This document shows positions 1-17,148 of a stretch of 61,854 bases of DNA, in pieces. Every line of letters begins with the position of its first letter. Position 1 is the first letter of the stretch. This DNA is from Anaerolineae bacterium. Its GTDB lineage: Bacteria; Chloroflexota; Anaerolineae; B4-G1. Below the pieces are notes generated by a model. That model saw only the letters and a list, made by a program, of their open reading frames with translations, was not told the origin of the DNA and made no database searches. The translations under genes were made by a program, and so were the position numbers. Where the stretch lies: NCBI GenBank assembly GCA_034432855.1, contig DAOUBA010000147.1:1-61854 (forward strand). The letters run 5' to 3'.

Positions 1-16
1 ATTGGGCAAGGATTTT

Positions 17-90
17 GCCACAAAGGACACGACGGTCACACGAAGGACACAAAGGTATCCTTAGTGTCCTTTGTGTATCCTTTTTGTCCC
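17..90. repeat. AAGGACAC-unit phased repeat with inverted partner, 3' of the aminotransferase gene
   Basis: gccacaaaggacacgacggtcacacgaaggacacaaagg followed by gtgtcctttgtgtatcc. The 14-mer cacaaaggacacga (19-32) recurs at 54593-54606. Confidence 0.5.
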
Positions 91-121
91 TGGTGGTTTT
101 ATTGGTTCCGGCTTGTCCGGG

Positions 122-1390
122 TTAGGGATTAGGAAAGGATTGTTTGAAGATTGTGATCGCGGTTTCGATCTGCTCCTCCGTGACGATGAGGGGCGGCATC
201 CAGCGCACGACGTTATCATATGCGCCGCAGGTCAACAACAACAGGCGCCGCTCCAGACAGCGCCCGATCACCTCTTTGACGACGGCGGAAGCCGGCGTAC
301 GGTCGGCGGCGGTGAACTCGGTGGCGACCATCAGCCCCAGCCCACGCACGTCGCCGATGACCGGGAACTCACGTTGCAGTTCGCGCAGCCGTTCCAGCAA
401 GAGCGCGCCCTGGCGCTGCGCGTTCTCCAGCAGTCCCTCCTCGCGGATGACGCGCACGGTGGCGACCGCCGCAGCGCAGGCGACGGCGTTGCCGCCGTAG
501 GTGCCGCCGTGCGAGCCGGGCGTCCATCGCTCCATCAGCTCCCGCCGCGCCGCCACACACGAGAGCGGCAACCCGGAGGCCAGCCCCTTCGCCATCACCA
601 GAATATCCGGCGTGACGCCAAAGTGCTCTATGGCGAACCACCTGCCGGTGCGCCCGAATCCGCACTGAATCTCGTCGGCGATGAGCAGAATCCCGTGCTC
701 ATCGCAGATACGGCGCACGCCCTGCAGAAAGCCCGGCGGCGGCACGACGTAGCCCCCCTCGCCCAGCACCGGCTCGATCAGGATCGCCGCCGTCTCTGCG
801 GGCGCGGTCTGGGTCCTGAGCAGGAATTCCAATTCGCGCAGACAGAACGCCTCGGTCTGCTCGGGACTCCAGCCATAGCGGTAGGCGTACGGGTACGGCG
901 CGGTAAAGACGCCCGCCGGCAGGGGTTGATATCCGGCGCGGTAGATCGTCTTGGAGGTGGTCAATGCCATCGCCAACGCAGTGCGACCGTGGAAACTACC
1001 CTGGAAGACAATGACGTTGGGCCGTCCAGTCGCGTGACGGGCCAGTTTAATCGCGCCCTCGACCGCCTCTGCGCCGCTGTTGGAGAAGAAGAAGCAGTCA
1101 ATCGTCGGCGGCACGATCGTACGCAGTTCCCGCGCCAATTCCAGGAGCGGCCTGTGGTAGACGATGTTGACCTGCCCATGCAGGAGTCTGGTCGCCTGTT
1201 CCCGGATCGCCTGCACCACCCGGGGGTGGCAATGGCCGGTATTGGTCACGGCGATGCCACAGGTGAAATCCAGGTAGCGCGCGCCGTCTTCACCGTAGAT
1301 ATAAGCCCCCTCCGCCCGTTCCGCTACGATAGGGGTGTAGCGTTTCCAGACGGGAGAGATGAGAGATTCCGACGATAGTGATTTGCGCAT
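122..1390 (-). CDS. class-III PLP aminotransferase (4-aminobutyrate / omega-amino acid type)
   Basis: 422-aa ORF. Motifs: FSNSGAEAVEGAIKLAR, LIADEIQCGFGRTG, DILVMAKGLASG (PLP lysine), GGTYGGN. GGAGG RBS before the ATG at 1390. Confidence 0.85.
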   Translation of the reverse strand: MRKSLSSESLISPVWKRYTPIVAERAEGAYIYGEDGARYLDFTCGIAVTNTGHCHPRVVQAIREQATRLLHGQVNIVYHRPLLELARELRTIVPPTIDCFFFSNSGAEAVEGAIKLARHATGRPNVIVFQGSFHGRTALAMALTTSKTIYRAGYQPLPAGVFTAPYPYAYRYGWSPEQTEAFCLRELEFLLRTQTAPAETAAILIEPVLGEGGYVVPPPGFLQGVRRICDEHGILLIADEIQCGFGRTGRWFAIEHFGVTPDILVMAKGLASGLPLSCVAARRELMERWTPGSHGGTYGGNAVACAAAVATVRVIREEGLLENAQRQGALLLERLRELQREFPVIGDVRGLGLMVATEFTAADRTPASAVVKEVIGRCLERRLLLLTCGAYDNVVRWMPPLIVTEEQIETAITIFKQSFPNP

Positions 1391-1444
1391 AGAGCCTCCA
1401 CAGGTGATCGTTCAACGGGGTAGGGGCAGAGCGGCGCTCTACTC

Positions 1445-3253
1445 CTACCCCGTGTCCCACCCGCGCAGTTCGTAGTAGAGCGGCAGCAGCCGCTCCAGGT
1501 CGGGGAGGTTGCCGGCTGCGCCGCCGGAGGGCCGTGGCTCCGTCAGCAAGCGGCGGGGCAGCGTGTCGTCGGTGCGGGTGATGCCCAACCTCAGGTTGAT
1601 CTGCCGCTTCAGGTTGAACAGCCGCTCGCCGGTGCACAACAGGTCGTCGGCGCTCCAGTCCCAGCCGGTCGCCGCGTTGACCAGCGCCGCAGTCCGTGCC
1701 GGGGCCAGGCCGCCCTTGATCATGAATTTGCACAGCCCCAGCGGGTTGAAGACGCTCAGATAGTTCTGAAACGTGATCACCAGGCGCACGGTTTCCTCGT
1801 TAGAGGCCAGGCGGTCATAAGGGCCTTCCTGCCAGCCGGGCCACTCGATGCCATAGCCACGCCAGTAGGTGCCGCTCTCCAGGTGACAGGCGCCGCGGTT
1901 GGCGGTGGCATAGTTGAGTCCCATGTCCACAAAGGCGCGCGGGTCGTGATAGGCCACCTCCAGCCCTTTGACGTGGATGGCGAAGGATTCCGCTTCTGGC
2001 CCCAGCCGCGATGCCGCCGTGCGGACACCCTCGGCCAGTAACGCCCCCAGCCCTTCGCGGCGCGCGATCTGTTCGAGCAATGTCAGCACCGGCCCAGGCT
2101 CCCCCCACGCCAGGCGCAGACCACCCGCCTCTTCCGGCGCGATCAGGCCCCGCTCCATTGCCTCGGTGGCGAAGGCGATCACGCCGGAGGTGGAGATCGT
2201 ATCCAGCCCCAGGTCATTGCAGCGCGCGTTAATCGCCGCCAGCGCCTCCAGGTTATCAATCAACAGGTTGCTGCCAAAGCCGCACAGTGTCTCGTACTCC
2301 GGCCCCTCGCCCCAGGTTCCGGCGTAGGGGCCATCCTTGACTTCGATCACCTTGCCGCAGCCGAGCGGGCAGGCATGGCAAAAGGTATCCCGCACGCGCA
2401 GCTTCTCGCGGATGGACAGACCGGAGATGGCCTGCGCCCCGTCGGGCCAGGAGCCCTCCTGCCAGTTCTTGAGCGGCAGGCCGCCGAATTTCTCCGCGCC
2501 GGGGATACCGCCGGCCGTGCCTGTCAAAGACATCCCCTCGGAGCGCAAGCGGATGTAATTGTTGGCTTCCCTTACCAGGGCGCGGAGGCGCGCCGGGTCG
2601 GCATAGGTGGGACGCAGCGCTGCATCCTTACCTCCACCGTACACGACGATTGCCTTGAGGTTCTTCGACCCCAGCAATGCCCCCATCCCGCCGCGTCCCG
2701 CTGCCCGGTTATGCGCGTGACCGTCAACCATCACCCCGGCCAACGGGACGCCGTTCTCCCCTGCCGGGCCGATGCAGGCGGCGCGGGTGCCGGGAGCGGT
2801 ATCCTTTAACAGGCGCGCGTGCGTCTCGAACGTCCCGCGTCCCCACAGGTGACCAGCCTCCCGCACCTCGGCCTGCCCGTTGTGCACCCACAGATAGACC
2901 GGAACCGCTGCCCGCCCGGTGATCACCAGCCCATCCAGCCCGGCAAAGCGCAGTGCTGCTCCCCAGTGGCCGCCCACGTTCGACTCGTTCCAGATGCCGG
3001 TGAGGGGGGAACGCCCGCACCAGGACGTTCGCGCCGCGCCCGGGGCAAAGCTGCCGGTCAGCAGGCCGTTAAAGACGAGGAGAGGAGCCTCGGGGAGTGT
3101 GGGAGCCGGGAGGTGAGGGAGTTGAGAGAACAGGTGGGCTGCCAGACCACTGCCCAGCAACCATGTCGAGACATCCTCAGCAATGACCGGCTCCTGGGTG
3201 ACCGTCCCGCTGCTCAGGTCCACCCGCAGATACCACCCGGCGTGTACGCTCAT
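1445..3253 (-). CDS. aldehyde:ferredoxin oxidoreductase family (tungstopterin enzyme), copy 1
   Basis: 602-aa ORF. AOR-like N-terminus (YLRVDLSSGTV), GRGGMGALLGSKNLKAIVV and CHACPLGCG cluster motif. GAGGAGG RBS. Its start overlaps the stop of the upstream gene by 4 nt. Confidence 0.85.
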   Translation of the reverse strand: MSVHAGWYLRVDLSSGTVTQEPVIAEDVSTWLLGSGLAAHLFSQLPHLPAPTLPEAPLLVFNGLLTGSFAPGAARTSWCGRSPLTGIWNESNVGGHWGAALRFAGLDGLVITGRAAVPVYLWVHNGQAEVREAGHLWGRGTFETHARLLKDTAPGTRAACIGPAGENGVPLAGVMVDGHAHNRAAGRGGMGALLGSKNLKAIVVYGGGKDAALRPTYADPARLRALVREANNYIRLRSEGMSLTGTAGGIPGAEKFGGLPLKNWQEGSWPDGAQAISGLSIREKLRVRDTFCHACPLGCGKVIEVKDGPYAGTWGEGPEYETLCGFGSNLLIDNLEALAAINARCNDLGLDTISTSGVIAFATEAMERGLIAPEEAGGLRLAWGEPGPVLTLLEQIARREGLGALLAEGVRTAASRLGPEAESFAIHVKGLEVAYHDPRAFVDMGLNYATANRGACHLESGTYWRGYGIEWPGWQEGPYDRLASNEETVRLVITFQNYLSVFNPLGLCKFMIKGGLAPARTAALVNAATGWDWSADDLLCTGERLFNLKRQINLRLGITRTDDTLPRRLLTEPRPSGGAAGNLPDLERLLPLYYELRGWDTG

Positions 3254-3657
3254 GCCGCCTCCTCACTGACCTGCAGGCTCGCCGATTCATGTTCCTGCGC
3301 CAACCGCTGGAACAGCCGCGCCACCTCACGGATGGGCAGTCTGGCCGCCGCGTCGCGGTAGAAACGGGCCGCCGCCTCTTCCTGCTCCTGCGCCTGGGCC
3401 CGAAGCGCCGCCGCTTCGGCCTGGGGGTCGAGCGTCACGGCGTACGCGTTGCCATCCAGCCCGGTGATGGATTCCAGGATCATCTCGGCCACGCCCTCGC
3501 GGCGGGCCTGCTCCAGCCGCGCCAGCCGTTTACGGGCGGCCTGCTCCAGCTCCTGCAGGGAAGGCACAACCTCGCCCGCCGTCTCATAGAAAGCCGCGCT
3601 CTGTTCCTCCATCTGCATCGCAAAGCGCAAAATCGCGCCAAAAGTACCCAGCTCCAT
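3250..3657 (-). CDS. small ferritin/rubrerythrin-like helical protein (hypothetical)
   Basis: 135-aa ORF, two-fold A..ME..SAAFY / EE.AARFY helix pattern, translationally coupled to AOR copy 1. No metal-ligand ExxH motif was seen. Confidence 0.5.
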   Translation of the reverse strand: MELGTFGAILRFAMQMEEQSAAFYETAGEVVPSLQELEQAARKRLARLEQARREGVAEMILESITGLDGNAYAVTLDPQAEAAALRAQAQEQEEAAARFYRDAAARLPIREVARLFQRLAQEHESASLQVSEEAA

Positions 3658-3670
3658 ACCATACCCCCTC

Positions 3671-3756
3671 TGCGAATGTACGAATCTACGAATCCACGAA
3701 TATGCGAATGTGCCAGCGATGCGCCATTCGTCAGTTCGTCAATTCGCAAATTCGCT
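3671..3756. repeat. 8-nt-phased palindromic repeat (CGAAT arm / ATTCG arm)
   Basis: tgcgaatg tacgaatc tacgaatc cacgaata tgcgaatg, loop tgccagcgatgcg, then ccattcgt cagttcgt caattcgc aaattcgc. Lies between the mmsA stop and the ferritin-like gene start. Confidence 0.7.
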
Positions 3757-5209
3757 AGAACCACCGGCTGATGACCACTTTCCGGTCGGTGAAGAACTGG
3801 ATTGCATCGCGGCCCTGGCCGTGCAGATCGCCAAAGAAGGACTGCTTCATCCCGGCGAAGGGGAAAGTGGCGATGGGTGCGGCGACGCCGATGTTGACGC
3901 CGATATTGCCGCATTTGACCCGGTATTTGAACTCGCGCGCCCACTTTCCGCTGGAGGTGAAGATTGACGCTGCGTTGCCATAGGGAATGGCCTCGATGAT
4001 GGCGAGCGCCTCCTCGAAATCGGCCGCCGGGATGATACCCAGCACCGGGCCAAATATCTCGTCCTGTGCGATCGCCATCTCCAGGCGCACCCGGTCAAAG
4101 ATCGTCGGGCCGACAAAGTAGCCGTTGGGATTGCCGGCCACGGCGACTGTGCGCCCATCGAGCAACAACTCTGCGCCTTCCTGCACACCTTTTTCGATGT
4201 AACCCAACACGCGCTCCTTTGCCTTGCGCGAGACCACCGGCCCCATCTGCACGCTCTCGTCCAGCCCATCGCCGACCTTGATGCGCGCCGCCGCTTCTAC
4301 CAGGCGCTCCTTCAGCGGCTCATAGACCTTGCCGACGGCCAACACGAGCGCTCCGGCCAGGCAGCGCTGTCCGGCCGTACCGAAGGCCGAGGTGAGGATC
4401 GCCGCGACCGTCCCTTCCAGCGCAGCGTCGGGCATCACCACCAGCGCGTTCTTGGCTCCGGCCTGGCACTGCGCCCGTTTGCCGTTGGCCGCCGCCGTGG
4501 CGTAGATATACTTCCCCACCGGCGTCGAGCCGACAAAGGAGACGCCCGCCACGTCGGGGTGTGTGAGTAGCGCGTCCACCACGCCCTTTGCCCCATTGAC
4601 CAGGTTGATCACGCCAGGCGGGAATTCCGCCTCGTCCAGCAGTTCGAATATCTGGTTCTGGCTGACCGGGCAGACCTCGGAGGGCTTGACAATGTAGGTG
4701 TTGCCACAGGCGACAGCATAGGGCATGAACCAAAACGGCACCATTGCCGGGAAGTTGAAGGGCGCCACGCAGCAGAAAACACCGACCGGCTGGAGGACGC
4801 ACTCCTCGTCAATGCCGGCGGCGATGTCCTCGGCGTTGTAACCCATCATCAGCGAGGGAACGCCGGCCGCCACCTCGACGTTCTCGATGGCCCGGCGCAC
4901 CTCGCCCCGCGCCTCATCTATGATTTTGCCATGCTCGATAGTGATGGTGTGGGCCAGGTCCTCGAAATGCTCCTCCATCAACGCCTTGAGGCGGAACATA
5001 TAGCGCGAGCGCACCACGGCGGGCGTTTCGCGCCATTCCTGGAACGCCTCCTTCGCAGCGACTATGGCCCGATTAACCTCATCGGTCGTCGAAAGAGGGA
5101 CACGTGCGATCACTTCGTCGGTAGCAGGGTTGTGCACGTCCAGCAATTCACTCGAAGTCGAGGTTACCCATTCGCCGCCGATATAGTTCTTGAGTGTTCC
5201 GTAGCGCAT
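3755..5209 (-). CDS. mmsA: methylmalonate/malonate-semialdehyde dehydrogenase (CoA-acylating)
   Basis: Aldehyde dehydrogenase fold with MmsA-type motifs (GTLKNYIGGEW, FNFPAMVPFWFMPYAVACGNTYIVKPSE, QRCLA). ATG at 5209 follows a GGGAGGAAG RBS; the track ORF begins earlier at a TTG. Confidence 0.85.
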   Translation of the reverse strand: MRYGTLKNYIGGEWVTSTSSELLDVHNPATDEVIARVPLSTTDEVNRAIVAAKEAFQEWRETPAVVRSRYMFRLKALMEEHFEDLAHTITIEHGKIIDEARGEVRRAIENVEVAAGVPSLMMGYNAEDIAAGIDEECVLQPVGVFCCVAPFNFPAMVPFWFMPYAVACGNTYIVKPSEVCPVSQNQIFELLDEAEFPPGVINLVNGAKGVVDALLTHPDVAGVSFVGSTPVGKYIYATAAANGKRAQCQAGAKNALVVMPDAALEGTVAAILTSAFGTAGQRCLAGALVLAVGKVYEPLKERLVEAAARIKVGDGLDESVQMGPVVSRKAKERVLGYIEKGVQEGAELLLDGRTVAVAGNPNGYFVGPTIFDRVRLEMAIAQDEIFGPVLGIIPAADFEEALAIIEAIPYGNAASIFTSSGKWAREFKYRVKCGNIGVNIGVAAPIATFPFAGMKQSFFGDLHGQGRDAIQFFTDRKVVISRWF

Positions 5210-5517
5210 GACTTCCTCCCTTATTTCTGGTTCTCGGTACAAAACGCCGTAGGAGGGCTCCAGAGTCCGAAATCGGCGTCAGAGACGCCTCTTACCACAG
5301 TTTTGTACCGGAAACTATTTCTAAGCATTGGCGATGTCGGGCGCATATAAATCTTGGGGGGGACGAACGTTGGTTGAGCGCCGCCGTGTGCTCAAAGCAC
5401 ACGGCTGAGCCAAAAAGCCCTGTCGGGCTTATTTTCAGCCCCCGAAGGGGGCTTTTGCCTGTTCAGCCCGGTGCTTTAGCGCCGGGCACGAGACAGTCAG
5501 CACTTCCCCCCCAAGTG

Positions 5518-6843
5518 CTACATGCGCCCGGCGATGTCCGACAGCGCCCGCTCAATAATGTCAAGCCCCTCATCCAGTTGTGCCCGGTTGATGCACAACG
5601 GTGGGACGACGAAGAGCAAATGTCCGTTGATGAACGTAAACAGGCCATTCTCACGCAGGAACGCGCCGATTCGGTTCATCTCGGCGCTCTTGCCGCCCCA
5701 GGGGGCCAGTGGCTCTTTGGTGGCCCTATCCTTGACCAGTTCGATCACCGAGAACAGCCCGATGTAGCGCACGTCGCCCACCACGGCGTGGCGCGCCTTG
5801 ATCTCCTCCAGCCGCTGTCCCAGGACTTGCCCCAGCGTAGCGGCGTTCTCGATCAGGCCGTCCTCCTGGTAGACCTGCAACGTGGCAATGGCAGCGGCGC
5901 AGGCCAGCGGATGGCCGCTGTAGGTCAGCCCGCACCAGAACATTCTATCCTCGAAGAACTGTGCGATCGGTTCCGAGACGATCACCGCGCCAAGCGGCAC
6001 GTAGCCGGAGGTGAGGCCCTTGGCGCAGGTGATAATGTCGGGCACGACGCCCCAATGATCCACGGCAAACCACTTTCCCGTGCGCCCAAAGCCGCTCATC
6101 ACCTCGTCGGAGACGAGCAGGATGCCATACTTGTCGCACATCTCGCGCATGCGCGGCCAATAATCGTCGGGCGGGACGAGCAACCCGTTGGAGCCAGTCA
6201 CTCCTTCCAGGAAAATCGCCGCGATATTCTGCGCCCCCTCGAAGCGGATGACGTCCTCGACGTGGGTGATGCACTCGCGATGACAGGTCTCGCGCGTCCA
6301 GCCGAAATGGCAGCGGTAACAATACGGGTCGAAGACGTGCACGACGCCCGGGATGGCCGGCTCCGCTGGCCAGCGGCGCTGGTCGCCGGTGAGCGCCATC
6401 GCGCCGTGGGTGGCGCCGTGGTAGGAGCGGTAGCGGGCGATGATCTTGTGTCGCCCGGTATAAGCGCGGGCGATCTTGATCGCGTTCTCGTTCGCCTCCG
6501 CACCGCCCAGGCAGAAGAAGGTCTTCTTGAGATTGCCGGGAGCAAATTGCGCCAGTAACTCGCCCATCCGCCCGCGCGGCTCCGTCGCCAGCGCCGGCTG
6601 GACGAAGCAGAGTTGGGCAGCCTGCTCCTGAATGGCGCGCACCACCCTGGGATGCTGGTGGCCGATGTTCAGATTCATCAGTTGGGAGGAAAAGTCAAGG
6701 TAGCGTTTGCCATCGGCATCCCAGAAGTAGACGCCTTCACCGCGCACAGCGGCGATGGGGTTGACGGCAGACTGGACGGACCAGGAGAAGAATGTGTACT
6801 CCCGATTCAGGCGGACGATCTCCTGCGCACTCAGTGAAGTCAT
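5518..6843 (-). CDS. class-III PLP aminotransferase (omega-amino acid:pyruvate type)
   Basis: 441-aa ORF: CLGGAEANENAIKIAR, LVSDEVMSGFGRTG, DIITCAKGLTSGY. GAGGAG RBS. Confidence 0.85.
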   Translation of the reverse strand: MTSLSAQEIVRLNREYTFFSWSVQSAVNPIAAVRGEGVYFWDADGKRYLDFSSQLMNLNIGHQHPRVVRAIQEQAAQLCFVQPALATEPRGRMGELLAQFAPGNLKKTFFCLGGAEANENAIKIARAYTGRHKIIARYRSYHGATHGAMALTGDQRRWPAEPAIPGVVHVFDPYCYRCHFGWTRETCHRECITHVEDVIRFEGAQNIAAIFLEGVTGSNGLLVPPDDYWPRMREMCDKYGILLVSDEVMSGFGRTGKWFAVDHWGVVPDIITCAKGLTSGYVPLGAVIVSEPIAQFFEDRMFWCGLTYSGHPLACAAAIATLQVYQEDGLIENAATLGQVLGQRLEEIKARHAVVGDVRYIGLFSVIELVKDRATKEPLAPWGGKSAEMNRIGAFLRENGLFTFINGHLLFVVPPLCINRAQLDEGLDIIERALSDIAGRM

Positions 6844-6885
6844 CAGGCCGCTCCTCTCTGGAAATCCGCACGCCTGCCGGCGGTA

Positions 6886-8208
6886 TCAGCGTTTCACCGC
6901 CCGCACCACGTCCTCCATCACGTTGAGCGTCTCGTCCACAACGGCGTCGGAGTGGGAGTAGGACATGAACCACGGCTCACGCGGGTCATAGTCGGGCATG
7001 ACGCCACGTGCATAGGCGGCCTGGATCAGCCGCAGGTAGTAATCATGATCGCTGCGTGTCCAGCCCCGTTGGTCAGTCGGCTTTTCCGCAAGGCCGATGA
7101 CGAGCGAGAACATGGCCGGGTGGCCGCAGATGGTCGCCGGGATGCCGGCATCGTCGAAGATGCGCTTCAGTCCGGTCTGGAGGCGGCGTCCGCGTTCGGC
7201 GATGGTTTCCAGGATCGGCTGGTTCGCCAGCAGTTCCAGCGTCGCGGCCGCTGCAGTCACCCCCACGACGTTACCGGCGTAGGTGCCGCCGCAGGCCACC
7301 CCCACACCGACCACTTCCATGATCTCCCGTCTGCCGCCGAACGCCGCCACAGGATAGCCGTTGCCGAGGGCCTTCGCGTAGGTCGCCAGGTCGGGCAACA
7401 CGCCGTAGACCTCCTGCGCCCCGCCACGCGCGATGCGGAAGCCGGTCTTTACCTCGTCGAAGATGAGCACGATGCCATACTCGCTGCACTTTGCGCGCAA
7501 CAGTTCCAGCCAGCCCGGCAGCGGCTCGATGGCGGCGCAGTTGCCCAACATTGGCTCGACCAGGATCGCCGCCACCTCGTGCCACGTGCGGCGGACGGTC
7601 GCCTCGAGCACTTCAAAGTCGTTGAAAGGCAGCGTGATGATCAGGTCGTGCAGGACCCGGGGGATACCTGAGGTAGAGGGCACCGGGATAGGGCTGCGAC
7701 GGTTGCCGTACGATTTCGGATCGGTGTAGGTAGAGAAGAGGACATAGTCGCACATGCCATTGTACTGGCCCTCGAATTTGATGATCTTTTCGCGGCCGGT
7801 GTAGGCGCGGGCGACGCGCAACGCGTGCATCACCGCCTCGCTGCCGGTGTTGGTGAGGCGCACCATCTCAACCGCCGGGCACATCTCCACGATTTTCTCG
7901 GCGACGCTGACTTCCAGCGGCTGGGTGAAGGCGTAGACGACACCGTTCGCCAGCGCCTCCCGCACCCGGGTATCCACCTCGTCGTAGGCATGCCCCAGGA
8001 TGATCGGCCCGAAGCCCAGCCGGTAATCAATGAAACGATTGCCGTCTATGTCCCACAGGTAAGGCCCCTTTGCCCGTTCGACGAAGAGGGTATCCTCACT
8101 CCCCCAGTAGCGGAAGTTGGAACTGACGCCCAAGGGCATCACTTTAGCAGCGCGTGGCCACATGGCCCGGCTTTTTTCATGGTTAAAGTCCATGTCTGCC
8201 TCCCTCAA
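6886..8208 (-). CDS. class-III aminotransferase, glutamate-1-semialdehyde aminomutase-like
   Basis: 440-aa ORF: LTNTGSEAVMHALRVARAYTGR, LIFDEVKTGFR, DLATYAKALGNGYP. A 4-nt overlap couples it to the ferredoxin gene. Confidence 0.8.
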   Translation of the reverse strand: MREADMDFNHEKSRAMWPRAAKVMPLGVSSNFRYWGSEDTLFVERAKGPYLWDIDGNRFIDYRLGFGPIILGHAYDEVDTRVREALANGVVYAFTQPLEVSVAEKIVEMCPAVEMVRLTNTGSEAVMHALRVARAYTGREKIIKFEGQYNGMCDYVLFSTYTDPKSYGNRRSPIPVPSTSGIPRVLHDLIITLPFNDFEVLEATVRRTWHEVAAILVEPMLGNCAAIEPLPGWLELLRAKCSEYGIVLIFDEVKTGFRIARGGAQEVYGVLPDLATYAKALGNGYPVAAFGGRREIMEVVGVGVACGGTYAGNVVGVTAAAATLELLANQPILETIAERGRRLQTGLKRIFDDAGIPATICGHPAMFSLVIGLAEKPTDQRGWTRSDHDYYLRLIQAAYARGVMPDYDPREPWFMSYSHSDAVVDETLNVMEDVVRAVKR

Positions 8209-8630
8209 TCATTGCTCTCTGCCCCGGCCAGACTTACCGCCTGGGGATAACAATACTTTACACACTGCGGATCGCCACCACACAGGTCGCATGCCAGCGC
8301 CCGCTGAGTGGGTAGGTCAAAATACATTGCTCCATAGGGACAGGCCGGCACGCAGGCCGGGTCACCCCCACAGCCATCGCATTTCTGGAGGTCAATGGCC
8401 AGGGGTTGCCGCGCTCCGGCGCGTGAGATCGCCCCGCGCGGACAGGTCTCGATGCAGGGGGCCTTGGGGCACGAGAAGCAGGCCATCACCGCGCTCTTGC
8501 CCTCCAGCGGGTTGTTGGTGACGCGGATGCGCGCCCTGGTCGGGGCGAACTCGTCGAAATGCGTCGCTGAGCAGATCAATTCGCACAGACGGCAGCCAGT
8601 GCATAACTTGCTTGCAAACTTGAGTGGCAT
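8205..8630 (-). CDS. 4Fe-4S dicluster ferredoxin-domain protein
   Basis: Cys clusters CTGCRLCELIC, CFSCPKAPCIETCP, CDGCGGDPACVPACP, CDLCGGDPQCVKYC. ATG at 8630 follows GGGAGGAAG. Confidence 0.8.
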   Translation of the reverse strand: MPLKFASKLCTGCRLCELICSATHFDEFAPTRARIRVTNNPLEGKSAVMACFSCPKAPCIETCPRGAISRAGARQPLAIDLQKCDGCGGDPACVPACPYGAMYFDLPTQRALACDLCGGDPQCVKYCYPQAVSLAGAESND

Positions 8631-8642
8631 CGCTTCCTCCCT

Positions 8643-8677
8643 CACGTGCTACGCCTTACGTTTCACGTTTCACGCAT
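8643..8677. repeat. 7-nt-phased nACGnnn repeat (single arm)
   Basis: cacgtgc tacgcct tacgttt cacgttt cacgcat. Spans the last codons of AOR copy 2 and the ferredoxin 5' UTR, and resembles the right arms at 32320-32364 and 48940-48978. Confidence 0.5.
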
Positions 8678-10456
8678 CATATCGGCCAATCCCAACTCGG
8701 CCAACTTTTCCGGCGTCGGGACGCCATCCTCGTCCCAGCCGCGCAGCCGGTAGTATTCGCTCAGCACGGCATCGTATTCCTCGCGTGTGAAATTCTTACC
8801 CGCAGTAGCGCCTTCGGGCAACGGGCGGTCGAAGATGGCCGGCGGTGGGATGTCGTCCTTGCGATGAAAGCCCTCGCGCACATTGAAGATGCGGCCCAGG
8901 TTCCAGATACGCTCGCCGATCTTGTAGATATCGGCCTCGGTATAGGGCTGGCCGGTGCCGGCGGCAAGCAGTCGCGTGAGCGTAACTCCGTCTATGGCCC
9001 AAAAGTCGCAAAAGATACCGGTCCACTTGACGGAATTAAAGTTTTGCAGCGCCATGGTCATCTCGGCCCTGCCCTCCAGCGTGAAGGGGTCTGCGCCGGC
9101 GAAGGCATCGTTCGCCACAGTCCAGGCGCGCATGTGGCAGCCGCCCCGGTCGGAGGTACAGTAGGCCAGCGCCATGCCGTAGGAGCCGCGCGGATCGTAG
9201 GCCGGGAACTCCAGCCCTTTGTTTTCCATCACCAGATGGCCTGCGCCATACTTCTGAGCGATGTAGCGTGCTCCTCTGGAGAGTTCCTCCCCTACCCCAC
9301 GCCGGTAAGCGATGCTCTCGGTCGCTTCCAGGAATTCTTCCGCATCACCAAAGTGGACGCCGAAATCATGGATGCCCTCCTGCGCCATCAACATTGCCAG
9401 GCCCAGCACATTGCCGGTGGAGATGGTATCCAGGCCCAGGTTGTCGCAGAGCCGGTTGAAGGCCGTGACGGTGTCCAGGTCATCCATCGCGCAGTTCGAG
9501 CCACCCATGCCCAGCGTCTCGTACTCCGGCCCCTCCATGGGACCGGCGGCGCTATGGGTAAACTGGCCACAGGCCAGTGGGCAGGTCGCGCAGGCGCGGC
9601 TGGCGCGTTTGCGCTCCTGAAGCGCGTCTGAGTTGATCATCCCGGCCCTCTCGAAGACGCCCTGGCTAAAGCCGCGCGTGGGCAGCAGCCCCGCGCCCTG
9701 CGAGAGGCCGACGATCATTGGAGTGCCTGTGGCGTTGGCCCAAAGGTTGGCCTCGGTCAGCAGATTGGTGCGAAGTATTTCCTCATACAATGCCAGAAAC
9801 GCGCGCATATCCGGCACATGCACCGCTCCTGTGCCATGCACCCCGACGGCCTTGAGGTTCTTGCTGCCAAAGACCGCCCCAACCCCGCCACGCCCGGCCT
9901 GGCGATACGCCTCCGAGGTCAGGCAGGCGAAGGGCACCAGGTTCTCCCCGGCCGGCCCGATCGCGAGCGTGATGAGGTCATTATCACCGGCCTGCGCTTT
10001 CATCCATGCATCCGTCTCCCAGATACCCCGGCCCCACATCGCTGTGGCATCGCGCAGTTCCACCCGCTCGTCCTGGATCAGCAGCGCCGTTGGCTGCGGC
10101 GCCTTTCCGGTGATGATGACGCCGTCATAGCCGGCCAGTTTGAGCTGCAGTGCAAACGCTCCACCGACATAGGAATCGAGGATTGTGCCGGTGGCAGGGG
10201 AGCGGGTGCAGACGACCGTGCGGGCGGTGGTGGCCACGCACGTGCCTGCCAGCGCCCCCGTGAAGATGACGATGGCGTTGGCGGGAGAGAGGGGATCGGT
10301 GTGAGGAGGAAGCAGATCAAAAAGGTAGCGGAAACCCAGTCCTTTGCCGCCGATCAAGTCCCGCGTCCAGGTTTCGTTGAGCGGCTCGGTGAGGATCGTA
10401 CCATTGGCAAGGTCAACACGCAAGACCTTGCCGGCGTAGCAGGTTGTTTGTGTCAT
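8663..10456 (-). CDS. aldehyde:ferredoxin oxidoreductase family, copy 2
   Basis: 597-aa ORF, paralogous to 1445-3253 (YAGKVLRVDLANGT, GRGGVGAVFGSKNLKAVGV, CATCPLACG). GGAGG RBS. Confidence 0.85.
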   Translation of the reverse strand: MTQTTCYAGKVLRVDLANGTILTEPLNETWTRDLIGGKGLGFRYLFDLLPPHTDPLSPANAIVIFTGALAGTCVATTARTVVCTRSPATGTILDSYVGGAFALQLKLAGYDGVIITGKAPQPTALLIQDERVELRDATAMWGRGIWETDAWMKAQAGDNDLITLAIGPAGENLVPFACLTSEAYRQAGRGGVGAVFGSKNLKAVGVHGTGAVHVPDMRAFLALYEEILRTNLLTEANLWANATGTPMIVGLSQGAGLLPTRGFSQGVFERAGMINSDALQERKRASRACATCPLACGQFTHSAAGPMEGPEYETLGMGGSNCAMDDLDTVTAFNRLCDNLGLDTISTGNVLGLAMLMAQEGIHDFGVHFGDAEEFLEATESIAYRRGVGEELSRGARYIAQKYGAGHLVMENKGLEFPAYDPRGSYGMALAYCTSDRGGCHMRAWTVANDAFAGADPFTLEGRAEMTMALQNFNSVKWTGIFCDFWAIDGVTLTRLLAAGTGQPYTEADIYKIGERIWNLGRIFNVREGFHRKDDIPPPAIFDRPLPEGATAGKNFTREEYDAVLSEYYRLRGWDEDGVPTPEKLAELGLADMMRET

Positions 10457-10503
10457 ACGCGACCTCCATCTTGATTAGTGAATAGGGAGCAGTTTTCTTG
10501 CTC

Positions 10504-11325
10504 TCATACCCAGTCCGATACTTCGTTGTACCATCGCTTTTTGGGGCCCACTTTGGCCCGGCGTCTCCATTTCCCGGATTTGGGAGCGGTCTCGATGGCC
10601 TGAAACAGATGGTCGGCCTGGGTTATGATCCGCGCCCGCTGCTCGTCGCTCAGCGCTGCCACGCCGGTCAGCGCCGCCTTGACCCGCTCCAGGTTGGTCG
10701 TCGCGGTGTAGTAGAAACCCCAATCATCGGCCAGCAGTCCGGCGACGTACCCGGCATTGATCCCTGCGTCATCACTCATACCGATCGGGGCGGCCAGCAA
10801 CAAGAGCATCGTGTCTTTGAGGTCCTTGTCGTTGATGTGGACGATCTGCAGTTTTTGCAGCAGCAGGTCAGTCAGCGAGACGCAATGTGGGTGCAGTTCC
10901 AACCGTCCTTTGTAACTGATGCGGTGATTCATGTCGAGCTGATCGTAGAATACGTCAATCATAGGGATACGGTCGCCAAAGTAGATGTGACGGGTCTGCC
11001 CGAAGAGCATCATCATGCGCGGATCATAACTGTAGCCCTGAGCCTCGAAGAAAGCGACCAGTCTTCCCCTGTGCTTGCCGTACGCGGCATAGTCAATGTC
11101 GGTGAAGACGCGCTCGCCCAGCCGCTCCATGCGCCGGTATAGCTCCACATAGTTGGGGAAGTAGAAGTGGAGCGCGATCGGCCCCATCATCCGCAAGATC
11201 AGGCCCTGCTTCCACGCCTCGTCAATCAACCGACGCGCCTCTTCCAGGTAGGTTTCCGGGCTGGGGTATTCCTCCAGGGGAATGTCTTTTGGTAAACGGA
11301 ATTTTCTCTCAGCGACCATTTTCAC
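10504..11325 (-). CDS. hypothetical protein, possibly nucleotidyltransferase-fold
   Basis: 273-aa ORF with natural composition and a GTGA overlap with the upstream gene. FTDIDYAAYG resembles an NTase acidic motif (weak). Confidence 0.55.
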   Translation of the reverse strand: MKMVAERKFRLPKDIPLEEYPSPETYLEEARRLIDEAWKQGLILRMMGPIALHFYFPNYVELYRRMERLGERVFTDIDYAAYGKHRGRLVAFFEAQGYSYDPRMMMLFGQTRHIYFGDRIPMIDVFYDQLDMNHRISYKGRLELHPHCVSLTDLLLQKLQIVHINDKDLKDTMLLLLAAPIGMSDDAGINAGYVAGLLADDWGFYYTATTNLERVKAALTGVAALSDEQRARIITQADHLFQAIETAPKSGKWRRRAKVGPKKRWYNEVSDWV

Positions 11326-12251
11326 CCCGACGTGAAGATATAGTCCTTGAGTTTCCCCTTCTGCAGGATCAGCACCACACCTTTCAGGATGCCTTCGGAA
11401 TACTCGCTGCCGGGGTTGATGATCGTCGTGCGCCTGATCTTCTGTACTCCGCGCGACTCGTGGATGTGGCCGTGCAGCCCCAGGAGCGGCTGGTACTTCT
11501 CGATCATCTTCGCCACCGCGCGGCTGCCCACGTGGACGCGGCGGTCGGCTGCCTGCACCAGGTCCTTCGTCAACTCAGGCGCCAGGTCAAGCGCGTAGCC
11601 GTAGGGCGGGGCGTGAAAGTTGAAAATAGAAGTGGACACATTCTGGATTCGACCGATCAGCGACTCCAGCATCGGCTCAAGTTCCTCGTCCGGCTTCTCG
11701 CGCGGCGTCTCCCATGGCGTCGGGTTCGTCCAGGCGAACGTCGCCATCTCATGCTCACCGACCATCACCACCCGGTCATTGCAGTTGACGATCACATCTG
11801 AGCCTTCGATCACTTCGTCTACTTCGAGATGATCGTCGTTGCCAGGCGACATGTAGACCTTGTACGGGGTGCCGGCCAACCGTTCGTCGGCCAGGGCGAT
11901 CCATTCCCTCAGCCGGTCGAGCATCAATCGCTTGAACAGGGCCTCCTGAGCCGCCCGATCGGCCTTCAGTTCGGCGAACTGCTCAGGAGTCAGATGGGTC
12001 CAGTAGTACCCGATGTTCTCGATGGTTTTCTTGAGTCTTTCCAACTCCTCCGGGATGTCCACTATGACATGGCGCCCCATGAACGTGGTTTCCCATCCCT
12101 CACCCACCCGCTCCACCAGCGGGATCAGCATCTTGCCGGTCAAGTCGCCCAGCAGAATGCCGACGTCTACATTGTAGACTTTCAAGGCATTCAGGAATTT
12201 GCGGTAGCAGATGTTGGAGCCGTGGATATCGGTGACGAAAAAAATTCTCAT
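11322..12251 (-). CDS. metallophosphoesterase (calcineurin-like)
   Basis: MRIFFVTDIHGS, LLGDLTGK, SPGNDD, GLHGHIHES motifs. Confidence 0.75.
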   Translation of the reverse strand: MRIFFVTDIHGSNICYRKFLNALKVYNVDVGILLGDLTGKMLIPLVERVGEGWETTFMGRHVIVDIPEELERLKKTIENIGYYWTHLTPEQFAELKADRAAQEALFKRLMLDRLREWIALADERLAGTPYKVYMSPGNDDHLEVDEVIEGSDVIVNCNDRVVMVGEHEMATFAWTNPTPWETPREKPDEELEPMLESLIGRIQNVSTSIFNFHAPPYGYALDLAPELTKDLVQAADRRVHVGSRAVAKMIEKYQPLLGLHGHIHESRGVQKIRRTTIINPGSEYSEGILKGVVLILQKGKLKDYIFTSG

Positions 12252-12286
12252 CGCGACTCCCCCCTACTCTCCGCTCCCTGCTCCTC

Positions 12287-13900
12287 TTACTCAGGCGGCA
12301 ACTCACCGTAGGCCATGCTGACGTCAATACCGACCCGTTTATTCCGCGCGACCCAGAAGTAGTACCAGGCGATGCCCAGTCCCCAGATGATGACGTAAAA
12401 GATCAGGGAGGCAATGGTCAACTCCTCCAGGCCGGGCATGACGATGAAGAAATAGAACAGGATCGCCAGGTAGATCAGGTTGACAATCCCGCCGATGGTG
12501 ACAACCGGGATGTTCGCGATCTTCCAGTGGCTGTACGGCGAGGCCTCCCAGATATGGCGCGCTTTCTTCACGAATGGGAAGATGGTCGCGGCCAACGCGG
12601 TCACGCCGAACACAGAGACAATCTCCAGGCCGGTCACGGAGAGGCCGCTCATCTGCTCCTGCCACACCGCGTAGAGCGCGATACCGATCTCACCCAGGAT
12701 GAAACAGAGGATGTGGTTCTTGACCGGCGTGGCCCAGCGCGGATTAATATCGGTGAACCACTTGGGCCCGATGCGATCCATGCCCCAGGCGAAGAGGATG
12801 CGCGGGAATGCCAGATAGGAGAGCGCTACCCACCAAAAGTTGAATAAGACGAACGAAAGGGCCATCAGGAACAAGAGTATGGGACTGCGGGTGACGACGG
12901 CGGCCAGCCCGACGAAATGCGGTGCCCATGGCATGGTATATCCGGCCAACTCGCCGCCCAGCGTTTCGTCCACGAAGGCCGCCGCGCTGAGGAACTGGAA
13001 GCCGACCGTGCGGTACAGGACAATGGACAGCCAGAGCATAAAGAAAGCCGGCACGAGGATGGCGAACAGGTTGCCCAGGATGATGGATTTGTCGGGTCGC
13101 TTGACTTCACCGGCGATGAAGGTGATGCAGTAGCTGTAGGCAAACAGCCACGAACCGGCCACCATCACGCCCAGCGTATCGAACCAGTTCCAGGTGACCG
13201 GCAGCGTCTTGCCGGCTGCCTCCATCTCGGCCTGCGCGGCAACCAGGAATTGGTCGTAACTTAACGACCCATATTCAGCCGCCAGGTCGTTCCACGCCCG
13301 GACGAACGCTTCGCGCGAGGTGAAGGTGAAGACCAGCAGGATGACGAGCGCGCCCAGGATACCCAATGCCATAACGACTTTCTGGGCTTGGGCGAAAACC
13401 TTGATCCCGAAGACAAGGAAGAAGAGCGCGATCAGGTTCACCAGGCTGGCGATCAGGAACAGAGCCAACGGTTGGGAGAGGAAATCGGCGACTTGCGGCA
13501 TGCCGAGGAACTGGAATAACATCACCAGGCCCGGATCCACCGTCCAGGGGGCCAGGACGTAGATCCACATAATCCAGACGAAAGCATTGCCGAAACTTTC
13601 CGCAATGCCGATCAGGGGACTGAGAATACGGGAGTTATAGATGTACTCACCGCCGCTGCGGGGCATACTGCCGCCCAAGATACCCCACACCAGCGAGAAG
13701 CCAATGCCACACATAACAGCAGACAGAATGGTGGCGATGATCAGATTGCCACCGGTGTAGACCGAAAGCCCCAGGCTGATCATCACCCACATACTGGGCG
13801 TCAGGCCCTGGTTCATGAACCCGACCCCAAACGCATCGAGCAGCGAAAGGCCGCGCACCAGCCCGCTGGCCTTCCTGGCAAACACTTTTTCTTCGGCCAT
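12287..13900 (-). CDS. APC-superfamily amino acid/amine permease
   Basis: 537-aa ORF that is hydrophobic throughout (about 12 or more TM segments), N-terminal FARKASGLVR motif, AGGAGGAGG RBS. Confidence 0.8.
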   Translation of the reverse strand: MAEEKVFARKASGLVRGLSLLDAFGVGFMNQGLTPSMWVMISLGLSVYTGGNLIIATILSAVMCGIGFSLVWGILGGSMPRSGGEYIYNSRILSPLIGIAESFGNAFVWIMWIYVLAPWTVDPGLVMLFQFLGMPQVADFLSQPLALFLIASLVNLIALFFLVFGIKVFAQAQKVVMALGILGALVILLVFTFTSREAFVRAWNDLAAEYGSLSYDQFLVAAQAEMEAAGKTLPVTWNWFDTLGVMVAGSWLFAYSYCITFIAGEVKRPDKSIILGNLFAILVPAFFMLWLSIVLYRTVGFQFLSAAAFVDETLGGELAGYTMPWAPHFVGLAAVVTRSPILLFLMALSFVLFNFWWVALSYLAFPRILFAWGMDRIGPKWFTDINPRWATPVKNHILCFILGEIGIALYAVWQEQMSGLSVTGLEIVSVFGVTALAATIFPFVKKARHIWEASPYSHWKIANIPVVTIGGIVNLIYLAILFYFFIVMPGLEELTIASLIFYVIIWGLGIAWYYFWVARNKRVGIDVSMAYGELPPE

Positions 13901-13973
13901 TTTCCTCCTCCTATTTAGCTATACTTGGGCCATTGAGGGCTCGTGTCACACTGGCGAGGTTTATCAATCCATC

Positions 13974-14465
13974 TCATTCCTCCTCACTCTCCACAGCACA
14001 TACGGAACTGGGAATATCCCAGTCGTAAACGTCCTTCAGGATCAGCGGCACCAGGATCGTGCTTGTCTTCCTGACTCCCGGCACATTGCCGACGACTTCG
14101 GTCACGAAGTGGTAGAGTTCCTCGTTATCGCGGGCACAGACCTGGATGCTCAGGTCCCGATCGCCTGTTGAGCAGGCAACATAACTCACCTGTTCAAACT
14201 CGGCCATCTTGTGGGCCACTTCGAGCACATGCCCGGGCTCGATTTCCAGCCAGACATCGGCCGTAACGGGGAAACCGATGGCTTTGGGGTTCACGATGGC
14301 GCTGACGCGGATGACGCCGGACTGGATCAACCGGTCAATGCGCCGGCTGACAGCCCGTTCGGAGACGTTGCCTATACGTCGCGCGATCTCGGCGCCGGAC
14401 ATGCGGCCATCCTCGATCAGGAGATGCACAATCGCGCGATCAAGCGGGTCAATTCTGCGGCTCAT
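13974..14465 (-). CDS. Lrp/AsnC-family transcriptional regulator
   Basis: 163 aa; HTH segment LDRAIVHLLIEDGRMSGAEIARRIGNVSERAVSRRIDRL followed by a RAM-like C-terminal domain. Confidence 0.85.
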   Translation of the reverse strand: MSRRIDPLDRAIVHLLIEDGRMSGAEIARRIGNVSERAVSRRIDRLIQSGVIRVSAIVNPKAIGFPVTADVWLEIEPGHVLEVAHKMAEFEQVSYVACSTGDRDLSIQVCARDNEELYHFVTEVVGNVPGVRKTSTILVPLILKDVYDWDIPSSVCAVESEEE

Positions 14466-14772
14466 TGTACGGGGAAAGAAAAGTGTTACCCTTTTGTACA
14501 GTCATTATACGCAATATGTCCGAAAAAGTCAAGTTTTGTCAGATTACTGTCTATTTTGGACATAAGCCGCTCCATCGTGCCGGCACCTGGCATGGCAGAA
14601 GCGGGCTGAACGTGCTCTGGCGGGTTGAGTGTTGGGCTATTTGGTGTTATCATTGGACCGGCAGTGCCGTTGCCGGTGGAGGAGCGAGAGACGGAGGTCG
14701 TCACCGTTCTGGCCGATTGGCAGAATGTGGAAAGCGCTGCCTACGGCACTGGCGCTGCCCGCGCAACCTGCG

Positions 14773-16888: not shown

Positions 16889-16893
16889 CCGAT

Positions 16894-16921
16894 TTGACAT
16901 TCCTCTACGACGTGATAGAAT
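16894..16921 (+). promoter_or_regulatory. sigma70-type promoter candidate upstream of rpsA
   Basis: TTGACA-16 nt-TAGAAT. Would give a 5' UTR of about 220 nt. Confidence 0.4.
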
Positions 16922-17148
16922 ACACGTGTACGTACATTTTGGAGACACCGCCCCTTTCACCGTGCGGGCTGCGAAGCCGAACCGCCTTTGACAGACTGGC
17001 CTTTGCATGAGGTAGGCAGGGTAGGACAAGACGATTCGCCAATCCGTCCGATGTCAATACAGGTTGTGGACCGGCATTGCCCGCACCAGTGCAGGTGATG
17101 CCGGTTTCCTTGCCGGAGGGCGGTGTCCGACGAGGAGCAGCCTGGTTT

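Follow-up and report, generated by a model that had tools for sequence, protein, structure and literature searches.

Polyamines are abundant and nitrogen-rich in sediments, sludge and guts, and the bacterial routes described for their degradation are those of aerobes or facultative organisms, which use NAD(P)-dependent dehydrogenases or oxidases. In the aminotransferase pathway, known from PatA/YgjG, PatD/YdcW, GabT and GabD of Escherichia coli and from SpuC, KauB, GabT and GabD of Pseudomonas aeruginosa, two rounds of transamination take place, each then followed by oxidation of the aldehyde; SpdH cleaves spermidine in the latter species, and a beta-alanine branch leads to acetyl-CoA (PMC9397018). 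The present work deals with a gene cluster at positions 122-14465 of a contig from an uncultured anaerobic member of the Chloroflexota, in which class-III aminotransferases adjoin tungsten-type aldehyde oxidoreductases (AORs). The window, i.e., the entire stretch of DNA analysed, is the whole of this contig (C147, 61.9 kb) and belongs to a 3.88-Mb metagenome-assembled genome (MAG) that is 96% complete.

Tungsten-type AORs form the second group of described relatives. The bacterial enzymes have an AorAB architecture, in which polyferredoxin subunits bind the catalytic subunit in solved complexes. AorABC of A. aromaticum (8C0Z), the AOR of 9MQX, Wor1LS and WOR5 of P. furiosus all combine an AFOR_N/AFOR_C subunit with a polyferredoxin of ~150 amino acids (aa) and 16 Cys (PMC12096430), and the same combination adjoins in the window. 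Very few AORs have a known role. FOR of P. furiosus was proposed to oxidise glutarate semialdehyde or dialdehyde derived from basic amino acids (PMC12096430). It thus sets a precedent for AOR-family enzymes acting on semialdehydes of amino-acid and amine catabolism; no description of a linkage between FOR and aminotransferases was found in the literature searched. As for beta-alanine, it is catabolised in Pseudomonas by the omega-aminotransferase BauA and the CoA-acylating malonate-semialdehyde dehydrogenase BauC.

An initial annotation of the window had proposed that omega-amine transaminases feed AORs and an MmsA-type dehydrogenase in a degradation module for polyamines, beta-alanine or GABA-type compounds. 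This proposal is supported here, by comparative genomics only. The cluster appears to encode an aminotransferase pathway in which tungsten-type AORs replace aldehyde dehydrogenases (ALDHs) and in which an aminotransferase and an AOR probably form a complex; these two features would be its novelty. Among the open-access papers searched, none linked AOR-family enzymes to omega-aminotransferase or polyamine clusters or reported a fusion of ferredoxin and aminotransferase. The twelve head-to-tail open reading frames (ORFs) were all found at the positions previously given, and nearly every gene label was borne out by Pfam and NCBIfam profile searches. The features of the region are as follows.

14504-14532, minus strand: best sigma-70-like promoter match of the region, TTGACT-17-TATAAT, 11/12 matches, 39 nt upstream of the Lrp start (consensus match only)
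13974-14465, minus strand: Lrp/AsnC-family regulator, 163 aa (HTH_AsnC-type and AsnC_trans_reg)
12287-13900, minus strand: divergent APC-superfamily permease, 537 aa (AA_permease_2, 45 bits)
11322-12251, minus strand: calcineurin-type metallophosphoesterase (MPE), 309 aa (profile match)
10504-11325, minus strand: nucleotidyltransferase-fold (NTase-fold) protein, 273 aa (no Pfam match; AF2 and Foldseek)
8663-10456, minus strand: AOR1, 597 aa, putative catalytic subunit of an AOR with two subunits (AFOR_N and AFOR_C)
8205-8645, minus strand: AorA-type polyferredoxin (Fd), 146 aa with 16 Cys (AOR small-subunit relatives)
6886-8208, minus strand: glutamate-1-semialdehyde (GSA)-aminomutase-like or "GntE-like" class-III aminotransferase (NF041362)
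5518-6843, minus strand: omega-aminotransferase, 441 aa (PRK06062)
5210-5517, minus strand: hairpin-rich spacer (sequence inspection)
3755-5242, minus strand: MmsA-type ALDH (TIGR01722)
3250-3657, minus strand: helical protein, 135 aa (no Pfam match; weakly ferritin/erythrin-like)
1445-3253, minus strand: AOR2, 602 aa (AFOR_N and AFOR_C)
122-1390, minus strand: GabT-like class-III aminotransferase, 422 aa (PRK08117)
1-95, no strand: exact 95-nt overlap with the end of contig C111 (C111:27294-27388)

The first 95 nt of the window equal the last 95 nt of C111 and occur at no other place in the genome; therefore, the cluster continues onto C111. Past the GabT-like gene and on the same strand, an SSF symporter gene (27247-25688) and then a saccharopine-dehydrogenase-family (SacDH) gene (25565-24363) follow. 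The same continuation is present on a single contig in a 93%-identical relative (L091).

The cluster would resemble the described polyamine pathway in its two rounds of transamination and aldehyde oxidation, its GabT-like second aminotransferase and its proposed beta-alanine branch to acetyl-CoA, and related clusters contain PotABCD-like ABC transporters together with Lrp/AsnC regulators. An Lrp/AsnC gene also lies inside the polyamine cluster SCO5655-5658 of Streptomyces (PMC9397018). In contrast to that pathway, two aldehyde oxidations are assigned to ferredoxin-linked AOR-family enzymes, and MmsA is the only ALDH of the cluster, which has AORs at the places of the NAD(P)-dependent aminoaldehyde and succinate-semialdehyde dehydrogenases. 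The first aminotransferase is of a GSA-aminomutase-like lineage instead of the PatA/SpuC type, a SacDH enzyme takes the place of SpdH or an amine oxidase, and the host is an anaerobe.

Fusion of polyferredoxin and aminotransferase

The strongest new finding is a gene fusion. Eight of the 120 best database homologs of the GSA-like aminotransferase have a length of 535-593 aa, with 4Fe-4S dicluster domains N-terminal to the aminotransferase domain. The fused relatives show 66-79% identity. In the fusion alignment, the N-terminal part is 78% identical to the window polyferredoxin with 16/16 Cys, and a Pro/Ala-rich linker of 15-25 residues leads to an aminotransferase part that is 78% identical to the one in the window. 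The fused gene was confirmed as one ORF on four contigs of separate samples, namely L173 (NCBI MAG, 592 aa), L174 (ENA), and L175 and L176 (JGI, ENA). In the last two, it lies directly 3' of an AOR gene, and the module Lrp-permease-phosphoesterase-NTase-AOR-Fd~aminotransferase sits alone amid unrelated genes.

According to a tree of the aminotransferase parts, fused forms occur only in a supported 34-member clade, which also contains the window protein, and the fused or split state changed at least three times. No triple fusion of AOR, Fd and aminotransferase was found in a search for longer proteins. Since polyferredoxins of this type bind the AOR in solved complexes (PMC12096430), the fusions speak for a physical attachment of the aminotransferase to the AOR, and a complex of both is probable. 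Aminoaldehydes are reactive and cyclise or eliminate, which would be a plausible reason for such an attachment. The fusions further predict substrate channelling from a pyridoxal-phosphate (PLP) enzyme to a tungstoenzyme, and they offer a natural template for amine/acid biocatalytic cascades.

The polyferredoxin and aminotransferase genes of the window are split. The stop codon of the ferredoxin gene (TGA) is located at 8207-8205, and GAGGGAGG precedes an ATG at 8193, 11 nt past this stop. Translation of the aminotransferase most likely starts at this ATG, which gives 435 aa, a length typical of split homologs.

A related observation concerns an 841-aa database protein (P0124), in which a GSA-like aminotransferase (57% identical) is fused to saccharopine-dehydrogenase domains. 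It was seen on one 4.7-kb contig only and might be a gene-calling or assembly artefact.

The two AORs and their electron-transfer partner

AOR1 and AOR2 cover the AFOR_N and AFOR_C profiles almost entirely (242 + 385 and 215 + 406 bits, respectively). The top solved relatives of AOR1 are 9mqx_D (457 bits), 1aor (414) and AorB of 8c0z (392), and 1aor (400 bits) is that of AOR2. Compared with these 400-457 bits to AOR sensu stricto, the scores to FOR (226-315), WOR5 (~200) and BamB (166-196) are lower, and the archaeal GAPOR model yields 27-37 bits against a cut-off of 1300. Both enzymes thus have AOR sensu stricto as their closest group, well ahead of FOR, GAPOR, WOR5 and the benzoyl-CoA reductase subunit BamB. 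The possibility, raised in the initial annotation, that they act on formaldehyde or glyceraldehyde-3-phosphate is not borne out, judged on sequence affinity only. The alignment to 1aor of P. furiosus shows that the [4Fe-4S] ligands CxxCxxxC...C and the equivalents of Glu313 and His448, two residues listed as universally conserved (PMC12096430), are conserved in AOR1 and AOR2. The YE of GPEYE and the CH of RGGCH are also found in both, and Tyr427 of P. furiosus AOR aligns in AOR1 and is one residue off in AOR2.

The polyferredoxin has its top solved relatives among the small subunits of AOR complexes (9mqx_E, AorA 8c0z_C, WOR5 6x6u_B). Its 16 conserved Cys form four CxxCxxC...C sets, i.e., four [4Fe-4S] sites. 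By homology, AOR1 and Fd would be an AorAB-type pair, with the polyferredoxin as the predicted electron-transfer partner of AOR1. Unlike in AorABC, the FAD/NAD subunit and a HydABC-like module are missing from the cluster; the search for AorC covered only the 12 window genes and the two C111 genes. The window polyferredoxin also differs from AorA, as it lacks the C-terminal helix and stops immediately ahead of the aminotransferase gene, or else, as seen in relatives, runs on into the aminotransferase as one protein. AOR2 has no adjoining ferredoxin partner gene and is proposed to be a semialdehyde oxidoreductase.

Besides eight AOR paralogs, the genome contains MoaA, MoaC and MoCF-domain genes as well as four [NiFe] hydrogenase large subunits. 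An [FeFe] hydrogenase was not detected in this 96%-complete genome. A low-potential electron outlet for the cluster is plausible. Another AOR (28661-30535) with its own polyferredoxin (~28127-28501) is located on contig C81. The same contig encodes a large subunit of a [NiFe] hydrogenase (16517-17785) and contains a MoCF-domain ORF of 441 aa (~3825-4322) that may be MoeA, despite the lack of a match to MoeA_N.

Recurrent adjacency of AORs and aminotransferases

Neighbourhoods of 20 kb were fetched for relatives of the central aminotransferase, AOR1 and AOR2, and the cluster proteins were mapped on all of them. The closest public loci come exclusively from Anaerolineae/Anaerolineales MAGs. The neighbourhood is conserved in relatives, contrary to what would have refuted the initial annotation: the full gene order is retained in two relatives of ~90% identity (L086/L171 and L087/L091). 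The unit AOR1-Fd-aminotransferase is retained at 72-76% identity in L088, L089, L169 and L173, including two genomes from another family of the order. In L169 the order is Lrp-APC-MPE-NTase-AOR1-Fd-aminotransferase-omega-aminotransferase-GabT-like, and L173 has the same gene set with Lrp at the far end. Moreover, the GabT-like gene adjoins an AOR of the AOR2 type, downstream of it, in eight further loci (L096-L098, L119, L122, L123, L125 and L127).

A tree of 70 AOR sequences, taken from the fetched loci and the genome of the window, resolved four well-supported clades, each of which abuts class-III aminotransferases (three types) in Anaerolineae. The first clade (AOR1 type) comes with Fd and lies upstream of the GSA-like aminotransferase. 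Members of the second (AOR2 type) lie upstream of GabT-like, omega-aminotransferase or GSA-like genes. In at least eight loci, a member of the third comes directly after the GSA-like aminotransferase gene, and the fourth lies upstream of this gene; representatives of these two clades are likewise nearest to AOR sensu stricto. Two AORs flank the aminotransferase in L025, L051 and L058. In L181 and L187, an AOR1-like gene and a polyferredoxin gene are followed, after a gap of 21 nt, by a separate ORF for a different aminotransferase (34% identical to the omega-aminotransferase) and by a GabT-like gene. This aminotransferase is another partner for the AOR1-like module.

For a systematic sample, AFOR_C matches were listed across the order (60 genomes); about every third match was taken, and 40 regions were fetched. 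A class-III aminotransferase was located within ~5 kb of the AOR gene in 12/40 regions. The chance expectation, derived from the five class-III aminotransferases in this 3.9-Mb genome, is ~1-2%, so adjacency is enriched ~20-fold; the sampled genomes are related and the ratio is indicative, not a test. The AORs might instead be broad-specificity aldehyde detoxifiers that came to lie next to aminotransferases through frequent rearrangement in AOR-rich genomes (1-12 copies). AORs were indeed present in each of 61 genomes of the order, usually 5-10 per genome, 28 of the 40 sampled AOR genes had no aminotransferase nearby, and the characterised AORs have a broad range (PMC12096430). This explanation is nevertheless most improbable, as the polyferredoxin-aminotransferase fusions, the ~20-fold enrichment and the recruitment of four AOR clades to the same neighbourhood would hardly be expected if no functional link existed. 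The pairing of transaminases and AORs put forward in the initial annotation is supported by the recurrence of the adjacency with four AOR clades, the kept neighbourhood and the fusions.

Neighbouring families and substrate clues

All ORFs of 127 fetched loci were clustered, and the family counts refer to 80 loci of the GSA-like aminotransferase. ALDH and Lrp genes were each present in 25/80 loci, PotA-like ATPases and SacDH genes in 23/80, AORs in 17/80, and PotD-like binding proteins in 16/80. FAD amine oxidoreductases (FADox), with pipecolate oxidase and aminophosphonate oxidoreductase as their nearest models, also occurred in 16/80, and SSF symporters in 9/80. For the four transporter components, the top NCBIfam models are those of spermidine/putrescine PotA, B, C and D, and the cut-off is exceeded for the PotA subfamily alone. 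In L030, for instance, a single strand carries Lrp-PotABCD-ALDH-FADox-GabT-like-GSA-like aminotransferase-AOR-SacDH-ALDH.

Neomarinimicrobiota (L035-L045) have a tight array of GSA-like aminotransferase-FADox-SSF-ALDH-aminotransferase-ALDH-aminotransferase-ALDH without an AOR; L044 holds three aminotransferases and three ALDHs. One phylum therefore equips the same pathway scaffold with NAD-type dehydrogenases and another one with AORs. No other comparative argument speaks as strongly for oxidation of the transaminase products by the AORs.

This argument also bears on a reverse, biosynthetic direction, in which the AORs would reduce acids with reduced ferredoxin and the aminotransferases would aminate the aldehydes to amines or polyamines. 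Models for it are the carboxylic-acid-reductase/transaminase cascades and the aldehyde amination by GntE, CrmG and MxcL in natural-product pathways. The NAD-type ALDHs found in the same layout in Neomarinimicrobiota are effectively irreversible oxidants, and uptake systems (APC, SSF, PotABCD-like), Lrp, an irreversible decarboxylating MmsA-type enzyme and several ALDHs stand alongside, which makes this direction highly improbable. AORs are reversible, with acid reduction in acetogens and A. aromaticum (PMC12096430, PMC10816221), and the nearest named model of the aminotransferase is an aldehyde-aminating enzyme (bioRxiv 10.1101/2023.03.21.533663). The SacDH family includes the biosynthetic carboxynorspermidine synthase, but a carboxy(nor)spermidine decarboxylase gene is not present. 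For the SacDH protein on C111, carboxynorspermidine synthase is the sole NCBIfam match, and a distant one (~200 bits vs a cut-off of 800).

Altogether, the neighbouring families, among which PotABCD-like, SacDH and FADox genes are the commonest further ones, point to polyamine or diamine catabolism after the pattern of the aminotransferase pathway. The assignment of specific amines to specific enzymes is considerably more doubtful and should be read as tentative. Some loci have ornithine-cyclodeaminase-family genes beside the aminotransferase. In L014, L019 and L065, GSA-like aminotransferases adjoin members of the non-pyrrolysine MttB (trimethylamine methyltransferase) family, which hints at links to quaternary-amine catabolism.

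Aminotransferases and the MmsA-type dehydrogenase

The GSA-like aminotransferase scores 611 bits with the NF041362 "GntE" model (cut-off 525) and 375.7 bits with HemL TIGR00713, below the cut-off of 527.3; many of its homologs are named GSA aminomutase by the source databases. The PLP lysine motif YAK-x-LGNG is retained. Like GntE from guanitoxin biosynthesis, the enzyme would act on an aldehyde/primary-amine pair. An identity with GntE was rejected despite the score, as no guanitoxin gene is found among the neighbours, and thousands of homologs, from Chloroflexota as well as other phyla, are surrounded by catabolic genes. The family captured by the model is evidently wider than GntE. The step from a diamine or polyamine to an aminoaldehyde is proposed for this enzyme.

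The omega-aminotransferase matches PRK06062 with 595 bits (cut-off 472). It adjoins a TIGR01722-type dehydrogenase gene in the manner of BauA/BauC, and the pair is kept in L006-L012, L182, L185-L192 and other relatives. A beta-alanine-type step feeding MmsA is proposed for it, whereas its top solved relative is the taurine:2-oxoglutarate aminotransferase 6jix (392 bits). The MmsA-type ALDH itself reaches 563.8 bits with TIGR01722, the model of CoA-acylating (methyl)malonate-semialdehyde dehydrogenase (cut-off 448.5), and its likely start is the ATG at 5209, preceded by GGGAGG. The GabT-like aminotransferase narrowly passes PRK08117 (576 bits vs 574), stays below the cut-off of the GABA equivalog TIGR00700 (420 vs 507), and has PuuE and GabT as top solved relatives (~330 bits).

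The 135-aa protein had been labelled ferritin-like. A weak match to the erythrin domain (MbfA, E = 4e-4) agrees with this label, but there is no Pfam match. In relatives its ORF always follows mmsA (L086, L091, L096, L098, L158, L160 and L171).

The permease-phosphoesterase-NTase module

The initial annotation had described the 273-aa protein as NTase-like and counted it, together with the phosphoesterase, in the catabolic set. The first point seems to hold at fold level. The AF2 model has a mean pLDDT of 94, and the top Foldseek matches in the PDB are all Pol-beta-type nucleotidyltransferases (ANT(2'')-Ia, MenT, JHP933, LnuA), although weak ones (E from 8e-4, TM 0.3-0.5). D76 and D78, a DxD motif, are invariant in 80 homologs, and the family comprises 1768 representative clusters.

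The second point fails. With an alignment of nine sequences as query, 80 genomic loci of NTase homologs (L179-L258) were collected. A phosphoesterase gene was present in 69/80 and an APC-type permease gene in 56/80, in varying order and orientation, and an AOR was near in only ~9/80, so both proteins belong with the permease. A role as AOR maturation factors was rejected on the same counts. The Lrp gene adjoins the GSA-like aminotransferase in 25/80 loci and the permease in 17/80. The permease triad occurs in Chloroflexota, Thermoleophilia, Bathyarchaeia, Thermoplasmatota, Asgard archaea (Thor-/Promethearchaeota) and others. Lrp, permease, phosphoesterase and NTase seem to form a separate, widely conserved uptake module. 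Two triad copies in opposite orientation were observed in L200 and L240.

Proposed pathway

The likely reading of the whole is a catabolic island for imported amines, polyamines or diamines and the omega-amino acids derived from them; this applies to the general mechanism. Lrp would control the cluster, and the APC permease with its phosphoesterase and NTase companions, plus the SSF symporter, would import the substrates. Cleavage of secondary amines, e.g., of spermidine to a diamine plus an aminoaldehyde, may be the task of the SacDH enzyme. The GSA-like aminotransferase would convert a primary amine into an aminoaldehyde and pass it directly to AOR1, whose polyferredoxin is predicted to be translationally coupled to the aminotransferase here and is fused to it in relatives, so that the reactive aminoaldehyde would not be released. 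The GabT-like aminotransferase and AOR2 would repeat the step on an omega-amino acid, e.g., from GABA via succinate semialdehyde to succinate. The omega-aminotransferase and MmsA would provide a beta-alanine-type branch to acetyl-CoA; an AOR cannot replace MmsA in this step because decarboxylation and CoA are needed. Two of the three aldehyde oxidations would hence fall to tungsten-type AORs instead of NAD(P)-dependent dehydrogenases. The electrons would exit as reduced iron-sulfur protein or ferredoxin, probably to one of the [NiFe] hydrogenases of the genome.

If the AORs do carry out the aldehyde steps, fermentative anaerobes could recover very low-potential electrons as reduced ferredoxin for H2 formation or energy conservation, the acid/aldehyde couple lying near -580 mV. 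Physiological substrates would thereby be assigned to some orphan AOR paralogs. A bolder version, to which slightly less than even confidence is given, holds that the aminotransferase, the polyferredoxin and AOR1 form the first assembly of a PLP enzyme with a tungstoenzyme. It would hand the aminoaldehyde directly to the tungsten site and be the core of an undescribed, O2-independent and ferredoxin-yielding polyamine route with a wide distribution among uncultured anaerobes of the Chloroflexota and other groups. Independently of this, the permease triad would be a new three-part uptake system of bacteria and archaea.

The cluster had also been regarded as a single co-directional module. The twelve genes are arranged as described, but they form separable modules, and the array extends past the window. 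As the modules occur apart in other loci, the 14-gene array is a mosaic. It might then consist of independent amine and amino-acid modules for different, non-polyamine substrates (taurine/hypotaurine, beta-alanine from pyrimidines, lysine- or ornithine-derived amines, guanidino compounds) that do not add up to one pathway. The modules would be Lrp-permease-phosphoesterase-NTase, AOR1-Fd-aminotransferase, omega-aminotransferase-MmsA, AOR2-GabT-like and SSF-SacDH, and the aminotransferase-AOR coupling would still hold within them. Such independence is unlikely, if well worth keeping in view. It agrees with L175 and L176, which carry only the first two modules, with the AOR-free set of aminotransferase, omega-aminotransferase and ALDH in L006-L012, with the AOR2-GabT-like pair alone in L125 and L127, and with the permease triad without catabolic genes in Thermoleophilia and Bathyarchaeia. 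The relationship of the omega-aminotransferase to the taurine enzyme and the ornithine-cyclodeaminase-family and MttB-like neighbours in some loci fit it as well. Nonetheless, the same families re-assemble in varied orders across lineages, which is typical of one pathway, PotABCD-like systems are the commonest transporter, and the products of one module in the window, omega-amino acids, are natural substrates of the next.

Several points weigh against the polyamine-type catabolic pathway preferred here. No aminotransferase passes an equivalog cut-off for a defined amine, and the solved protein nearest to the omega-aminotransferase acts on taurine. The window contains neither a Pot transporter nor a FAD amine oxidoreductase, and its permease matches no characterised polyamine importer and no NCBIfam model. 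L006-L012 have Lrp-aminotransferase-omega-aminotransferase-ALDH without an AOR within 10 kb, so the AOR is dispensable in some lineages. With regard to the tungsten cofactor, a WtpA-type tungstate transporter was not found in the genome (TupA was not searched), nor was MoeA_N. The pathway leaves the phosphoesterase, the NTase-like protein and the 135-aa protein unaccounted for, and an internal promoter or terminator might lie in the 278-308 nt that precede mmsA. Furthermore, all relatives are MAGs, and related genomes are not independent counts.

Gene junctions and contig context

The junctions had been described as short or overlapping. This is true for most of them (-4 to 76 nt), with two exceptions around mmsA, namely the gap of 97-100 nt between mmsA and the 135-aa ORF and the gap of 278-308 nt between the omega-aminotransferase gene and mmsA. 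The latter spacer measures 278 nt in the window, 209 nt in L091 and ~0 nt in L086. Because it varies to this extent among relatives of ~90% identity, it was not treated as a conserved operon boundary. An Rfam scan of positions 1-15000 at E <= 1 returned nothing relevant, so the spacer is not a known riboswitch. A terminator scan was uninformative, with 9 sites vs 9.5 expected, every one within genes. The variation fits the insertion of small hairpin or repeat elements (window 5210-5517 and 3658-3754) better than conserved regulatory DNA. Other spacers vary too: that between NTase and AOR1 is 50 nt in the window vs 253 in L091, and that between AOR1 and Fd is 20 nt vs 161 in L086.

Across the join with C111, the spacer between the GabT-like and SSF genes is ~167 nt long and carries the inverted repeat CACAAAGG...CCTTTGTG. 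In L091 (15333-17928), the SacDH gene is followed by a fragment of an MFS transporter and by a PLP decarboxylase of the MfnA-like kind, neither of which has a close copy in the genome of the window. The G+C content along the cluster is 0.58-0.66, like that of the remaining contig, and a recent horizontal transfer was rejected for lack of any compositional sign.

The gene mobB, cited in the initial annotation as a cofactor accessory gene nearby, is real (24703-25293, plus strand, PF03205) but has no relevance to the AORs. It was discarded as a cofactor link since it lies on the opposite strand and beyond hrcA-dnaK-dnaJ-prmA, and since the AOR pterin has no nucleotide, as the structure of P. furiosus AOR shows. 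These intervening genes form a heat-shock row on the minus strand, with hrcA at 23479-24513, dnaK at 20959-22848, dnaJ at 19753-20874 and prmA at 18872-19747.

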